NCBI GenBank assembly: GCA_025360715.1
Contig: JANYBS010000189.1
Coordinates: 29,229-93,228 of the forward strand
Source of the DNA: Candidatus Eiseniibacteriota bacterium
Lineage (GTDB): Bacteria > Eisenbacteria > RBG-16-71-46
Length of the DNA: 64,000 bases
Reading direction: 5' to 3'
The position numbers were made by a program, and so were the translations under genes. Numbering within the stretch: the first letter of the stretch is position 1; every line of letters begins with the position of its first letter. The notes beneath the pieces were generated by a model that searched no databases, was not told the DNA's origin, and was given only the letters and a program-made list of their open reading frames with translations. Shown here piece by piece: positions 8,189 through 15,016 of the stretch.

Positions 8189-8992
8189 CTATACCAAGAG
8201 GTTCTGCCGGCGCAACAGTTCTTCCATGAGTTTGGCATTGCGGGCAGCCTGCCCGGCATGGCAATTGTTGAAGAAAAGGTAGGTCTGCTTGGCCTTGTTG
8301 GCCATCTCGGTCACTCGCCCCACCCACTCCACCAACTCGCGCTCGGAGTAATCATAGTCATAGCGATCGCCGCCGCCGCGTCCCCACCACGTCTGCTCGT
8401 TGCGCCCGTGCAGGCGGATGTACGCATCGTCGGTCGTCACGTGCGTGACCGGCGGCACGAGCCCCGGCAGCGCTGGCTCGTCGACCGCGCAGTAGCCGAT
8501 CGCGCGCTCACGCAGCCACTGCGGCAGCTTGGGGTGCATCCACGAGTCGTGGCGGAACTCGGCCCAGAGCGGCTCGCCGGGCAGCACCTCGCGCAGGCGT
8601 TCCAGATGCGCCTTGTTCGCATCGGTGCGCTTGAAGCCCCACGGGAATTGCGCGAGCAGGCCAAAGTACTTACCCGCGTCCTTGAGCGGCTGGAGCACCG
8701 CGCGGAAGTCGCGCACCAGAGCGTCTTCGAACCCGGGCGCGTGCGTCATGGCCTGGTTGAGCTTGACGATGAAGCGGAAGCCATCCGGCGTCTTGCGCTC
8801 CATGAGTTCGAGTACGCGCGGGTTCGGGATGCGGTAGTAAGTGGAGTTCACCTCGACGCATGCGAACTGCGTGGCGTAGTGGTGCAGGAAGTCACCGCTC
8901 TTGGTGCCCTGCGGATAGAACGGCCCCACCCAGTCCGCGAACGAATAGCCCGACGTACCCACGTGAATCGAAGGAACGGTCTCGGCGCTCAC
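8189..8992 (-). CDS. DUF72 (YecE-like) TIM-barrel protein
   Basis: IHVGTSGYSF, VEVNSTYY, LLAQFP, YIRLHGR, YDYDYS, YLFFNN. Confidence 0.9.
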   Translation of the reverse strand: MSAETVPSIHVGTSGYSFADWVGPFYPQGTKSGDFLHHYATQFACVEVNSTYYRIPNPRVLELMERKTPDGFRFIVKLNQAMTHAPGFEDALVRDFRAVLQPLKDAGKYFGLLAQFPWGFKRTDANKAHLERLREVLPGEPLWAEFRHDSWMHPKLPQWLRERAIGYCAVDEPALPGLVPPVTHVTTDDAYIRLHGRNEQTWWGRGGGDRYDYDYSERELVEWVGRVTEMANKAKQTYLFFNNCHAGQAARNAKLMEELLRRQNLLV

Positions 8993-10278: not shown

Positions 10279-10300
10279 GCGCGGCCTTTCTTGCACCGGC

Positions 10301-10555
10301 TCACGCCGGGCCCGTCCATGCGCGGCTGAGCACCCACTTGGCGCCGCGCGCGTCGTAGCAGAGCTCGTAGCTCTCTTCCTTGGGGCCCTGGATCGCGAAG
10401 TAGCGCAGAACGGCTTGCCCCTCGCGCCGGTTCCATTGCCCCGTCACCTTGGCGACTCGTACCACACGCCCCTGCCAACGGAAGCGGATCGGGCGCATGG
10501 CGCCGTCCACGAACGCGGTGAGTACATCGACTGGATCATTGAGTGATTCGAACAT
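10301..10555 (-). CDS. Small protein resembling DUF6504 / ImuB C-terminal domain
   Basis: 84 aa; PIRFRWQGRVVRV...W...RYF...YEL...W pattern; GGAG RBS; first gene of the dinB unit. Confidence 0.65.
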   Translation of the reverse strand: MFESLNDPVDVLTAFVDGAMRPIRFRWQGRVVRVAKVTGQWNRREGQAVLRYFAIQGPKEESYELCYDARGAKWVLSRAWTGPA

Positions 10556-10586
10556 GGAGACGCGACTCTGGGCTGGCACCGCCCGG

Positions 10587-10616
10587 ATGATACTGCACAT
10601 CTGTGCAGTATCGCAA
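10587..10616 (-). promoter_or_regulatory. Promoter with overlapping palindromic operator (SOS-box-like)
   Basis: TTGCGA(10616-10611)-N18-TATCAT(10592-10587); GATACTGCACA-TC-TGTGCAGTATC (10589-10612) fills the spacer. Confidence 0.75.
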
Positions 10617-10658
10617 TCGCCATCATGACTGCCCGTGGCGCTGCAGCGGCGGGCCGCG

Positions 10659-12923
10659 TCAGCGTAGCGCCACCACCTTGGCGCTCGCGGTCACTCCCGC
10701 CTCGTCCACCCGCACGAGGTACACCCCGGCGGCCAGGCCCTCGCCGAGCTCGAGCGGGTGCTCGCCCGCGCCGGCCGCCGCGAGATCGCGCGTGGCCACC
10801 GCGCGACCCGCCAGATCGAACGCCCGCAGGCGCACGGCGCCCGCGTGAGGCAGCGTGAGCAGCACGCGCAACCGCCCCATCGCCACGCCAGCGCCGCGCA
10901 CGGCAAGCGAGTTCGCGTGCACCGGCGCGGGCGCTACCTCGGCGGTGGCGTCCACCACGCGGCTGAAGTACGAGTCCGGCGAGCCGCCGCGGCCATCGGT
11001 CCAGTTCGCGTACACATTCATGCCATCGGCGATGAGCGCGCTGTAGTCGCCCATGTTCGGAAACATGTTCGAGGCCACGTTGTTCCAGTTCACACTCGGG
11101 CCGGCGTTCACGCGCGCGCTCGCGCCGAAAGTGCGCCCGCTGTCGTCGGAGCGCGCCACGTAGACGTCGGTCAAGATACCGTTGGCCGGGTCGCCCACGT
11201 GCCCATACCACGAGACGAACACGCGGTGAGCGACGTCGATCGCCACCTCGGGCCAGATCTCGTCGAAGCCCGGCGGCGTATCGCTCACGCGCGTCGGCGG
11301 GCTCCATGTCGTACCGCCATCGCTCGAACGCGAGAGCATGATGTCGCGGTGGTCGCGCGCGACATCGGTGAACGACGGCGTGTGCGCGCCGGTCACCACT
11401 TGGTACGCCCCGATATCCGCGGTGAAGCCATCCCAGTTGAGCACGCGCAGATAGTAGGTGCCGGTACTCGGCAGTGTGAATTCGATGGGACTGCGGCCGC
11501 CGCTGAAATGCGAATAGGCGACGCGGTTCGCCGTGGCGCCACCGCCAGCGAACAACCGCAGGTAGCCGTTGCATGACGCATCGACGGGCGTCAGTGAGAA
11601 CTCCGCGACCTGACCGGCCAGGCCGGTGAACGAGAACCAGTCCTGGTCGAAGACGCCGGCCAGCGCGCCGTGGAGCGTGGCCCCCAGCGTGAACGGCGTC
11701 GCCTGCGCCGAGGCATCGTCGGGCTCGAGTTCGTTCACCACGCCCGTCGTGCCGAGCAGGTCGCGGTTGAAGTCCACGCCCTCGTTCCACACCGCGATGA
11801 GCGTGCCACGGCTGGGCGTACTCGAGAGGTCCACGTCGAACGACACCTGCGCAACGACGCGCTCGCGATTGAACCCCGCAGGGCCCGAATAGAAATTGTT
11901 CATGAACGCGCGGCCACCGATGTTGGCTTCGGGCCCGAACGTGAGCCCGGCATCGTTCGACCGGCGGATGCGCAGGTATTCCTTGGAGTCGACGCGGCTG
12001 AAGCAGTAGTAGGCCAGAAAGACTTCGCCGTTCGGGCCCACGCGCAGGCGCGGCGACATGTCACCCGAGGTGGCGGGATCACTGAGCGCGATCGGCGCCG
12101 ACCACGTGACGCCGTGATCGAGCGAGCGCGAGAACTCCAAGCGCTGGCCGCCGGCGCCGAAGAAGCGGACGTAAGCCACGTATACGGCGCCGCTCACCGG
12201 GTCGGTCGCGAGCCAGGGCTTGTCGAGCACGTCCGAGCCGCTCACCGCGATCACGTACGGATTCGCCCAGACAAGCGTGCTGCCCACGAACATGCCGTGG
12301 TTCACCGAAATAGCGTACTGCCCGGCGCTGGGCCGGTATAGACTCGCCAGATACCAGTGCCCCGCCGGCTCGCTCACGATCACGGGATCGCCGTAGTAGA
12401 TGTCGGTCAGACCGGTGGTGGGCGGACTGCCCGCATCGATCCAAGTGGCGCCGCCGTCGACCGAGTAGCCCCAACCGGTGGCGCCAGGCCGCACGCCGAA
12501 CGAAGCGCCGTCATTCCAGCCCGCGACGATCTGCAGTCCCTGCGCGGACAGCGAGAGTTCCGCCTCGCAGTTGTTGGCGGCACCGGGGCCATTGATGCGC
12601 AGATCGGCGCCCAGAGCGCGCAAGGCGCCGCCGCTTCCCGGCCCTGCGCCCTTCGCGGCGCCCCACTCGCGTGGCGCGTACACCGGATCGGAGGGATCGT
12701 CATCGCGGGCGAGCGCCTCATCGCTCTCGCGCATGGTCTCGAGGACAAGGTCCGGTGGCAGGATGCCGGACCAGGTGCTCACCGCGCGCGACGCGGAGTC
12801 CGGGTGGCCGACGGGCGGTAGCGCGGGCGCGTCGGTTGGCCGGCGGGCCGCCCCGCCATCGGCGAGCGCGGCGATGGGCAGCAGCAACGCGAACAGGATC
12901 GGCAGATGGCCGGCGCGTGACAT
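10659..12923 (-). CDS. Secreted BNR/Asp-box beta-propeller protein with PPC insert and T9SS-like CTD
   Basis: Signal peptide; five Asp-boxes (SVDGGATW, SLDHGVTW, SNDAGLTF, SSDGGTTW, SDDSGRTF); ELEPDD...DQDWFSF...GTYYLRV; C-terminal FDLAGR...AGVYLVRV...KVVALR. Confidence 0.8.
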   Translation of the reverse strand: MSRAGHLPILFALLLPIAALADGGAARRPTDAPALPPVGHPDSASRAVSTWSGILPPDLVLETMRESDEALARDDDPSDPVYAPREWGAAKGAGPGSGGALRALGADLRINGPGAANNCEAELSLSAQGLQIVAGWNDGASFGVRPGATGWGYSVDGGATWIDAGSPPTTGLTDIYYGDPVIVSEPAGHWYLASLYRPSAGQYAISVNHGMFVGSTLVWANPYVIAVSGSDVLDKPWLATDPVSGAVYVAYVRFFGAGGQRLEFSRSLDHGVTWSAPIALSDPATSGDMSPRLRVGPNGEVFLAYYCFSRVDSKEYLRIRRSNDAGLTFGPEANIGGRAFMNNFYSGPAGFNRERVVAQVSFDVDLSSTPSRGTLIAVWNEGVDFNRDLLGTTGVVNELEPDDASAQATPFTLGATLHGALAGVFDQDWFSFTGLAGQVAEFSLTPVDASCNGYLRLFAGGGATANRVAYSHFSGGRSPIEFTLPSTGTYYLRVLNWDGFTADIGAYQVVTGAHTPSFTDVARDHRDIMLSRSSDGGTTWSPPTRVSDTPPGFDEIWPEVAIDVAHRVFVSWYGHVGDPANGILTDVYVARSDDSGRTFGASARVNAGPSVNWNNVASNMFPNMGDYSALIADGMNVYANWTDGRGGSPDSYFSRVVDATAEVAPAPVHANSLAVRGAGVAMGRLRVLLTLPHAGAVRLRAFDLAGRAVATRDLAAAGAGEHPLELGEGLAAGVYLVRVDEAGVTASAKVVALR

Positions 12924-13033
12924 GGGCAGTGGCCCTCGTGGGCGAGGAGGTTGCGGATCGAGTGCCCGGTCACAGGGAGCATACCCGGTCACGGCCGCTC
13001 CGCGCACGCCCGAAGCCATGCTAGCTTGGGCGC

Positions 13034-15016
13034 GTGCCCACCCGCGCCCCAAGCTCGCTATCGCCCGCCGCCAGTCGGCGCGCCGCCTACGCGCTGGCGT
13101 TGATCGCCACTGCGCTCTGGACGGCGCTGGCGTGGGGCAAATACCACAGCTTCCTCTACACGGACTTCGACCTCGCGCTCTTCGCGCAAGCCGCGCACGG
13201 CGTACTGCATGGCTCGTTCTTCACCTCGATCCGCGGCATGCATTGGCTGGGTGACCACAGTTCGCTCGTGCTCATCCCGCTCTCGCCGCTCACGGCGCTC
13301 ATGCCCCCGGCGCTGGCGCTGCTCGCAGCCCAATGCGCGGCGCTCGCGCTGGGCGCGCTACCGGTGCATGCGTACGCGCTCAAGCGCACAGGCGACGCCG
13401 TACTGGCGCTCGGTTGCGCGCTGATCTGGCTGCTGCTGCCCGCGCTCAGCTGGCAGGCGATGTTCGAGTTCCACCCCGAGACGCTCGCGGCGCCAGCGCT
13501 CCTGGCTGCATGGGTGGCGATCGACGCGCGCCGCCCGCGCGCAGCGCTGGCGTGGATGGCGTTCGCGCTGCTGGCCAAGGAGGACGTGGCGCTCGTGGCG
13601 CTGGGCATGGCTGCCTGCGCGCTGCTGCCGCCGCGCACGCGCCAAAGCGCGCTGGCGCTGGGGCTGGCGGCGCTTGCGTGCGTCTCGCTGGCCGTCTCCT
13701 TCGCGTGGCTCAAGCCCGCGTTCGGCGGCGGCGCGGACTACGGCATGCTCTATCGCGATCTTGGCGCGACGCCGCGCGAGGTGGCGGTGCATCTGCTGAG
13801 TGATCCGCTGGGCGCGCTGACGCGCCTATTCGCCACACCGGGCCATGCGGTGGACAGCGCGCTCAAGCTGCGTTTCTGGCACCAGATGCTTCTGCCACTC
13901 GCCTACCTGAGCGTGCTCGCGCCCTTCGCTTTGTTGCCGGCGGCGCCGGTCTTCGCCGAGCACTTATTGGCATGGCGCCCCGAGCAGCACAGCATCTACT
14001 ACCAGTACACGGCGCTCACGCTGCCCTTCGTGATGCTCGCAGGCGTCGACGGCCTGGCGCAGCTGCGCGCGTGGCAGCCGCGCGCGGCGGCCACGGGGGC
14101 AGGATTCGCACTGCTGCTCGCGGTGCTCGCGCAAACGCAGTTCGGCGCACTGGGCGAACTCGCGCATGCAGGCGGCGAGCCCGGCCTGGGTGGCCTGGCG
14201 CCGGAAGCGACGTGGGCGGACCCGCGCTCGCGCGCGCTGGCCGGGGATCGCGCGCGGATGCTTGCGGCGCTGCCGGCGCGCGGCGATGTGGCCGCCAGCT
14301 TCGTGTTCCTCTCGCACCTGGCCGCGCGCGACAGCGTGCATGCTCTGCATCACATCACCGGCGGCACGTACACGTTTTCGCGCAAGTCCTATACGATGCC
14401 ATCCGACTTGCGCGGCCTGGTCTGCGACTACAGTTGGGACGACCAGTTGGCGTTCGCATCGACCGACGCTCGCCGCCGGCTCGCGCGGTGCATCGCCGTG
14501 AATGCGCTGCAGCCCGCGGCTCTGGGCAGCGAGATGATCACGTACACGCGCGGCGCGCGTGACACCGTGGAGCTCCTGCACGCCGTCGATGCGACACGTG
14601 GGATTGGGAGCGTGGCGGTCGATCCCGCGCTCGTGTTCCTGGGCGGCACGCCGGCGGCACTGTTCGTGGCGCAAGGCCGGGCGCTCGAGTTGCGCCTGCG
14701 CTGGCAGCGGGTGACGCCCAGCGATACGTCGTATTGCGCCGAACTCGCTCTTCGCGAGGCCGGCGGCGACGACGTGCTCGAGCAGCCGCATCTGGTCGGC
14801 CACGCGCCTTCACCGCCCGCGCTGTGGAAGCAAGACCAAGGCTACGAGGAGTCGGTGCGGCTCATGGTGCCCGACAACGTGAAGCCCGGCGCCTATGACC
14901 TGCTGGTGCGCTTCGGACGCATCACGGGTGCGGCCTATGTGGCGGCGGCCGATGCGCGGGGCCAAGAACTGCCGGCGGTGACGCTGGCGCGCATCGCAGT
15001 CACGCCCGCCCGTTGA
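13034..15016 (+). CDS. DUF2079 membrane protein (GT-C-like glycosyltransferase)
   Basis: DFDLALFAQ, WLGDHSSL, EFHPET, AKED and YYQY motifs; multiple TM helices. Confidence 0.8.
   Translation: MPTRAPSSLSPAASRRAAYALALIATALWTALAWGKYHSFLYTDFDLALFAQAAHGVLHGSFFTSIRGMHWLGDHSSLVLIPLSPLTALMPPALALLAAQCAALALGALPVHAYALKRTGDAVLALGCALIWLLLPALSWQAMFEFHPETLAAPALLAAWVAIDARRPRAALAWMAFALLAKEDVALVALGMAACALLPPRTRQSALALGLAALACVSLAVSFAWLKPAFGGGADYGMLYRDLGATPREVAVHLLSDPLGALTRLFATPGHAVDSALKLRFWHQMLLPLAYLSVLAPFALLPAAPVFAEHLLAWRPEQHSIYYQYTALTLPFVMLAGVDGLAQLRAWQPRAAATGAGFALLLAVLAQTQFGALGELAHAGGEPGLGGLAPEATWADPRSRALAGDRARMLAALPARGDVAASFVFLSHLAARDSVHALHHITGGTYTFSRKSYTMPSDLRGLVCDYSWDDQLAFASTDARRRLARCIAVNALQPAALGSEMITYTRGARDTVELLHAVDATRGIGSVAVDPALVFLGGTPAALFVAQGRALELRLRWQRVTPSDTSYCAELALREAGGDDVLEQPHLVGHAPSPPALWKQDQGYEESVRLMVPDNVKPGAYDLLVRFGRITGAAYVAAADARGQELPAVTLARIAVTPAR

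Follow-up and report, generated by a model that had tools for sequence, protein, structure and literature searches.

A predicted LexA operator at the promoter of a DUF6504-dinB-DUF72 operon in Candidatus Eisenbacteria

A perfect palindrome in the promoter of a DUF6504-dinB-DUF72 operon of Candidatus Eisenbacteria is, with high confidence, predicted to be the LexA operator (SOS box) of that operon. The site was studied in a 64-kb stretch of DNA, the whole of which is referred to here as the window. The reading is carried by the sequence of the palindrome and its geometry within the promoter, by its conservation in orthologous promoters, by the presence of the same motif in the lexA promoters of relatives and upstream of other SOS-type genes, and by the residues conserved in the LexA proteins of the lineage. 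What is new seems to be only the use of the motif by Candidatus Eisenbacteria and by neighbouring lineages of the FCB group, and its extended 20-bp form.

The palindrome and its promoter

The arms GATACTGCACA (10589-10599) and TGTGCAGTATC (10602-10612), separated by the dinucleotide TC (10600-10601), form a perfect inverted repeat of 11 bp on each side (Table 1), and the sequence bore out the original prediction of such a palindrome overlapping the hexamers TTGCGA and TATCAT. Viewed along the operon's coding strand, the palindrome fills the spacer between the -35 and the -10 and overlaps both hexamers, and 33 nt separate its end from the ATG (10555) of the first gene, in agreement with the distance of about 35 nt given originally. 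A consensus scan of the region 10300-10800 returned TTGCGA-18-TATCAT as the sole promoter-like site (9/12 matches; 0.1 in shuffles), while no terminator-like site was returned by the scan of the same region. The upstream gene, coding for a BNR/PPC-domain protein, lies on the same strand as the operon, so that there is no divergent gene for the palindrome to serve.

Table 1. Coordinates of the palindrome, its promoter and the adjoining genes in the window.
Feature	Position	Strand	Description
Perfect 24-bp palindrome	10589..10612	none	Read as LexA operator (SOS box), predicted
20-bp form	10591..10610		TACTGCAC-N4-GTGCAGTA
14-bp lineage-conserved core	10594..10607		TGCAC-ATCT-GTGCA (TGCACATCTGTGCA)
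-35-like hexamer TTGCGA	10611..10616	-	Last two bases are the outermost palindrome bases
-10-like hexamer TATCAT	10587..10592	-	First four bases (TATC) are the palindrome end; TA is the TA of GTGCAGTA
GGTGCC element	10575..10580	-	Starts 7 nt past the last -10 base (6 intervening bases), where transcription is expected to start
Gene 1, DUF6504 small protein, 84 aa	10301..10555	-	Pfam DUF6504, E 2e-4, below gathering score
Gene 2, Y-family DNA polymerase (DinB/Pol IV-like), 435 aa	8989..10296	-	Pfam IMS 1.5e-44, IMS_C 2e-29
Gene 3, DUF72 protein, 267 aa	8189..8992	-	Pfam DUF72 2.4e-63
Upstream BNR/PPC-domain gene	10659..13052	-	Stop codon 47 nt before the palindrome

The 20-mer TACTGCACATCTGTGCAGTA was present as a single copy in the window, where even with up to three mismatches 0 copies were expected. 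Seven perfect palindromes with arms of 11 bp and a loop of 0-6 were found, versus 0.44 expected from Markov shuffles, the other six being GC-rich hairpins. Two pattern scans revealed no second credible LexA box in the 64-kb window: TGCNC-N4-GNGCA matched four times (4.6 expected), and CTGCAC-N4-GTGCAG, with up to two mismatches, nine times (6.6 expected). Seven of the eight extra box matches were located inside coding regions, and the eighth (257-272) was located where the gene map has no ORF.

The GGTGCC element listed in Table 1 was found 13-14 nt past the operator core in 45 of the 62 distinct orthologous promoters, and anywhere downstream of it in 47 of the 62. In the DUF6504-dinB promoters, GGTGCC(AG) lies 6-7 nt past the -10 and precedes the start codon by 12-27 nt; an obvious Shine-Dalgarno sequence is missing from most leaders that bear the element, and GGTGCC was absent from the lexA promoters that were read. 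A second LexA site making use of the downstream GGTGCC was considered and rejected, as no matching left half-site is found there. Further upstream, just past the stop codon of the BNR/PPC gene, a GC-rich inverted repeat, GCCCG...CGGGC around CGCTGCAGCG (10620-10658), makes up the outer stem in the RNA fold predicted for the intergenic region and may be the real end of the BNR/PPC transcript.

Conservation of the site in orthologous promoters

A footprint set of 87 loci encoding relatives of the DUF6504 small protein was assembled by protein similarity only, and not by the motif. The pattern TGCNC-N4-GNGCA was present in 84 of the 85 usable upstream regions of orthologous DUF6504-dinB operons. 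The stricter pattern TGCNC-N4-GTGCA yielded 83 matches in the 318,584 bases of the 87 loci, where 4 were expected, and every one of them (83/83) was located between the -35 and the -10 of the operon.

In the orthologous promoters the site is invariably flanked by a TTG -35 and a TA-N3-T -10. The count matrix built from 61 distinct sites reads cTTGcc-(n)AC-TGC[A/C]C-[A/G]nAT-GTGCA-[G/C]-TA-nnn-T, with TGC in 61/61 sites and the T of GTGCA in 60/61, that T being the only letter of TGC and GTGCA that the collecting pattern does not fix. The three specified bases of the -10, TA-N3-T, were conserved in 61/61, 61/61 and 60/61 sites, the TA being also the last two bases of the site, while among the orthologues 47/61 retained the C of CTG and 46/61 the G of CAG. 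The conserved TTG of the -35 is placed one base nearer to the operator core in the orthologues than in the window, and the spacer measures 17 bp in most orthologues versus 18 bp in the window.

The motif in lexA promoters

A motif-first scan with the pattern TACTGCACNNNNGTGCAGTA, covering one genome per species in 185,579 species, recovered at least 119 loci. Among the 119 matches listed, a lexA homologue, identified by tblastn with the E. coli LexA, followed the motif within about 250 nt in at least 17 loci, against a chance expectation of about 0.1 that is a rough estimate rather than a computed value. Eight of these 17 loci among the matches listed were labelled Eisenbacteria, including the complete chromosome OY970178.1, and nine were unclassified 'bacterium' MAGs. 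The layout of the lexA promoters, TTGAC-TACTGCAC-N4-GTGCAG-TAnnnT, is the architecture seen in the window.

A protein-first test was performed in the opposite direction, using one Eisenbacteria LexA as query and taking four of the proteins recovered (P0126, P0128, P0135 and P0148) blind to their DNA. Three of three Eisenbacteria lexA promoters (P0126, P0128 and P0135) carried TGCNC-N4-GTGCA between the -35 and the -10, one of them as two tandem sites; at the fourth locus the sequence stops 24 nt short of the gene. One lexA promoter from Zixibacteria read TTGACA-TT-TGCACAAATGTGCA-G-TAGATT.

The LexA proteins of the lineage contain the Pfam domains LexA_DNA_bind and Peptidase_S24, and the GRVAAG cleavage site, the serine of G[D/E]SM and the lysine of TVK were invariant in the LexA alignment. 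Many Eisenbacteria have lexA as the leading gene of a lexA-DUF6504-dinB-DUF72 operon. The operon of the window has lost, or never had, this lexA, and its operator sits on the operon's own promoter. No lexA or recA was detected in the 64-kb window by tblastn with E. coli LexA and RecA, so the link of the site to LexA rests on relatives. Taken with the footprint set, in which essentially all orthologous dinB units carry the motif, the lexA promoters of relatives support, by sequence comparison, the original prediction of a DNA-damage repressor (LexA) site. A literature search found no papers pairing LexA with Eisenbacteria.

In two Eisenbacteria loci (L207 and L209), a gene for an IS200-like Y1 transposase is located between lexA and the DUF6504 gene. 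This transposase gene has its own site, TGCACATTTGCGCA (L207, 3280-3293; L209, 3304-3317), so it is possibly LexA-controlled too.

Other genes behind the motif

Several other SOS-type genes were found behind the 20-mer among the matches listed. Cassettes of a DUF6504 gene, of the window type or of a paralogous type, with a Y-family polymerase accounted for about 23 loci, genes for ImuA-like RecA-fold proteins followed by imuB for six (from Ignavibacteria and unclassified MAGs), genes for SPL-like radical-SAM proteins for three (L114, L120 and L160), and a dnaE2-type gene for a Pol III alpha subunit for one (L168, a Fibrobacteria MAG, at 30 nt). About 50 of the 119 matches listed thus preceded SOS-type genes (17 lexA and about 33 others), proportions that are not quantitative for the regulon because the loci were selected by the motif and drawn from the matches listed. 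Most of the remaining matches listed, from Actinomycetota and other phyla, look unrelated.

Palindromes of the form TTACTGCAC-GCGT/ACGC-GTGCAGTAA recur in Mycobacterium, and similar ones were observed in Williamsia and Branchiibius (L090, L097, L118, L153, L157, L161, L169, L185, L190, L206 and similar loci). These palindromes have neither a LexA nor a polymerase gene nearby and therefore probably represent an unrelated operator. A site in Arthrobacter (L130) adjoins a TetR-like gene. On an Eisenbacteria contig (L192, 397-416), a perfect 20-mer is located 134 nt upstream of a gene of the Fic/DOC family, which is not a classical SOS gene.

The operon behind the predicted operator

The first gene of the operon encodes the DUF6504 small protein and the second is dinB, and the order DUF6504-dinB-DUF72 is kept in relatives. 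The translation of the DinB-like polymerase contains the catalytic motifs DMDAFF and SVDEAF. The start of the DUF72 gene overlaps the stop of dinB by 4 nt; being the conserved third gene of a predicted LexA-controlled operon and translationally coupled to dinB, the DUF72 gene is suggested to have a role in the response to DNA damage. This third position was observed in the window (8189-8992, minus strand) and in further loci (L001-L007 and L209-L213). The locus of the window was present, nearly letter for letter, in four DNA runs from sediment metagenomes, and no RNA runs with the locus were found.

All 21 aligned homologues of the small protein begin with MFE(S/T)L (21/21), which places the start of the DUF6504 gene at the ATG at 10555 and not at the ATG at 10600, inside the palindrome. 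A total of 195 homologues were collected, the named ones being annotated as Candidatus Eisenbacteria (MAGs) and the closest being 87% identical; 29 positions were invariant among 21 sequences. The AlphaFold2 model of the DUF6504 protein is all-beta, with seven strands and a pLDDT of 92, and a fold search against the PDB gave no match at E <= 0.001. When the DUF6504 family was compared by hhalign with an ImuB C-terminus, a weak to modest profile match was obtained (probability 64%, E 6e-5), and Pfam DUF6504 had no match on an Ignavibacteria ImuB. The DUF6504 protein probably partners the polymerase as a standalone ImuB-C-like protein, the homology to ImuB-C being suggestive only. In many Eisenbacteria a paralogous DUF6504 gene precedes a second Y-family polymerase gene, behind the same predicted LexA box. 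No papers mentioning DUF6504 were found in a literature search.

Systems formed by an active Y-family polymerase and a standalone ImuB-C, often together with lexA, are described in passages of Timinskas & Venclovas 2019 (PMC6511836), as is Geobacter sulfurreducens's lexA-imuB-C-polY operon (PMC6511836; Jara et al. 2003). The gene content of the operon studied here matches these systems, many Eisenbacteria having lexA at its head. In contrast with the Geobacter operon, whose LexA box is GGTT-N10-AACC (PMC8565304), the operon of the window has no lexA and carries an appended DUF72 gene, and its small protein is related to ImuB-C by the suggestive homology noted above.

Alternative explanations

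The palindrome could be the operator of another, non-LexA repressor, for example an S24-family or phage-like protein, that controls lexA together with the translesion polymerase genes, and non-canonical SOS repressors are indeed known in the neighbouring phylum Bacteroidetes (PMC8565304). The link to LexA rests on sequence comparison, and the recognition helix of the Eisenbacteria LexA, SSTNGVRY, is the same in the LexA of Calditrichota and KSB1, whose lexA promoters carry GAAC-type half-sites, so that identity of the helix alone does not fix the motif. We nevertheless regard such a repressor as improbable: in every lineage examined, the motif is located in the promoter of a canonical lexA (HTH and S24 domains, with all catalytic residues), and autoregulation is the rule for LexA; the same core is reportedly bound by the Fibrobacter LexA in EMSA and footprinting; and no second regulator gene is conserved beside the sites.

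It is very unlikely that the DUF6504 small protein is an autoregulator acting on a palindrome before its own gene, although the site does stand before nearly every DUF6504 gene, of the window type as well as of the paralogous type. The motif also precedes lexA-dinB operons that have no DUF6504 gene (L088, L172 and L174), a lexA followed by a radical-SAM gene (L214), and the SPL-like, dnaE2 and imuA-like genes described above. The protein itself has a predicted small all-beta fold, with no helix-turn-helix and no DNA-binding match, that resembles the C-terminal module of ImuB (PMC6511836).

A hairpin in RNA or DNA, such as a terminator for the BNR/PPC gene upstream, would be in keeping with a palindrome that lies 47 nt past the stop codon of that gene and that makes up a 10-bp stem in an intergenic RNA predicted to fold well (-60.4 kcal/mol, z = -4.9). 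However, there is no T-run, the scan found no terminator-like site, and the upstream genes vary among the orthologues (CcmF, a histidine kinase and others), whereas the site is fixed relative to the -35 and -10. At the fourth position of the left arm, 20 of the 61 sites have a C or a T, while 60 of the 61 keep T at the partner position, so the pair is broken without compensation. It is therefore the sequence that is conserved and not the base-pairing, which argues for a protein-binding site over a hairpin, and little credence is given to the latter.

A MerR-type activator site in an over-long promoter spacer, which the original prediction had kept as its alternative, can practically be set aside, for although the palindrome is centred in the spacer and 18 bp is one over the optimum, MerR promoters have 19-20-bp spacers, most orthologues combine 17 bp with good hexamers, no MerR-family gene is adjacent in the window (BNR/PPC, DUF6504, DinB, DUF72, LtrA) or in the related loci, and such a site would not be expected to accompany lexA and SOS genes.

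Comparison with known LexA boxes

As a LexA operator, the palindrome is most likely, by its sequence, a box of the Fibrobacter type in a further lineage of the FCB group. The LexA box of Fibrobacter succinogenes is reportedly TGCNC-N4-GTGCA, as determined by EMSA and footprinting, and we take the conserved core found here to be this same box. The TGCAC-ATCT-GTGCA of the window fits this reported 14-bp consensus exactly, the orthologues fit it in the TGCNC-N4-GNGCA form in the proportion given above (84/85), and the FCB group of phyla includes the Eisenbacteria as well. Among the matches listed, the extended 20-mer was also present in Fibrobacterota genomes, once upstream of dnaE2 (the L168 locus), which gives indirect support to this comparison. 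The consensus differs in that it extends to (T)ACTGC[A/C]C-N4-GTGCA[G/C]T(A) in the Eisenbacteria, which are another candidate phylum, where the site is a predicted one. The motif, proposed originally as an undescribed one for LexA, would thus presumably have been described already in its core.

The gammaproteobacterial (E. coli) SOS box is TACTG(TA)5CAGTA, or CTGT-N8-ACAG. The E. coli geometry ascribed to the palindrome in the original prediction holds for the frame and the ends: the site agrees with that box in its 20-bp length, in the TACTG...CAGTA ends and in the 16-bp frame, CTG-N10-CAG, with TA flanks; it likewise overlaps a dinB promoter, and the logic of repression would be the same. 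It does not hold for the CTGT/ACAG half-sites or for the AT-rich (TA)n centre. The window reads CTGC/GCAG, the fourth base being C in 61/61 sites, a letter that the collecting pattern fixes, and the inner CAC/GTG is conserved here. The recognition helices also differ, RSPNAAEEH in the E. coli LexA versus SSTNGVRY in that of the Eisenbacteria.

The Gram-positive Cheo box, CGAAC-N4-GTTCG, has the same 4-bp centre and half-site spacing, but its half-site is GAAC where GCAC is found here. In a Calditrichota lexA promoter (L216), TGAAC-ATGT-GTTCT, of the Gram-positive type, occupies the place where the Eisenbacteria have GCAC-N4-GTGC, and in a KSB1 lexA promoter (L215) the sequence is CTGAAC-ATAA-GTGCTG, a GAAC/GTGC hybrid, each of these being a single example. 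Both sites are located about 60 nt upstream of lexA in the same -35/operator/-10 layout, and the LexA helix of both is SSTNGVRY, as in the Eisenbacteria.

Proposed mechanism and significance

A LexA dimer would bind the two half-sites, CTGCAC and GTGCAG, across the 4-bp centre. The half-sites occupy the whole spacer between the -35 and the -10 as well as the first bases of the -10, and bound LexA is therefore proposed to keep RNA polymerase off the promoter. Upon DNA damage, the RecA filament would stimulate the self-cleavage of LexA, and the operon would be expressed, its predicted products being an active translesion polymerase of the Y family together with an ImuB-C-like partner and a DUF72 protein. 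From sequence comparison we infer LexA binding, repression and damage induction at this promoter, as well as a lexA of this type in the genome to which the window belongs.

A broader, tentative reading, which we consider possible but not the likelier outcome, is that the FCB candidate phyla keep living LexA-box intermediates in one fixed promoter frame, together with a TLS-centred SOS regulon. The graded series would run from the Gram-positive type, GAAC-N4-GTTC, in Calditrichota, through the GAAC/GTGC hybrid of KSB1, these two phyla being single examples, to the CTGCAC-N4-GTGCAG of Zixibacteria, Eisenbacteria, Ignavibacteria and Fibrobacterota, where the 20-bp form TACTGCAC-N4-GTGCAGTA would already have the frame and ends of the gammaproteobacterial TACTG-N10-CAGTA. 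If this were true, the specificity would have shifted through residues outside the recognition helix, which is unchanged across the series, and the SOS regulon would have at its centre translesion polymerases accompanied by standalone ImuB-C-like (DUF6504) proteins, and would take in a DUF72 protein.

The predicted operator introduces no new regulatory principle; it is a useful but ordinary element that would not surprise a specialist, and it adds data on the drift of the LexA recognition sequence between the Gram-positive and gammaproteobacterial forms. To our knowledge, the Candidatus Eisenbacteria phylum has no cultured members, and a working LexA motif for a candidate phylum would make the SOS regulon predictable in Eisenbacteria, Zixibacteria and Ignavibacteria genomes and in metagenomes. 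Two uncharacterised families, DUF6504 (possibly a standalone ImuB-C) and DUF72, are placed by it under predicted DNA-damage control beside a translesion polymerase, which offers a lead to their function.
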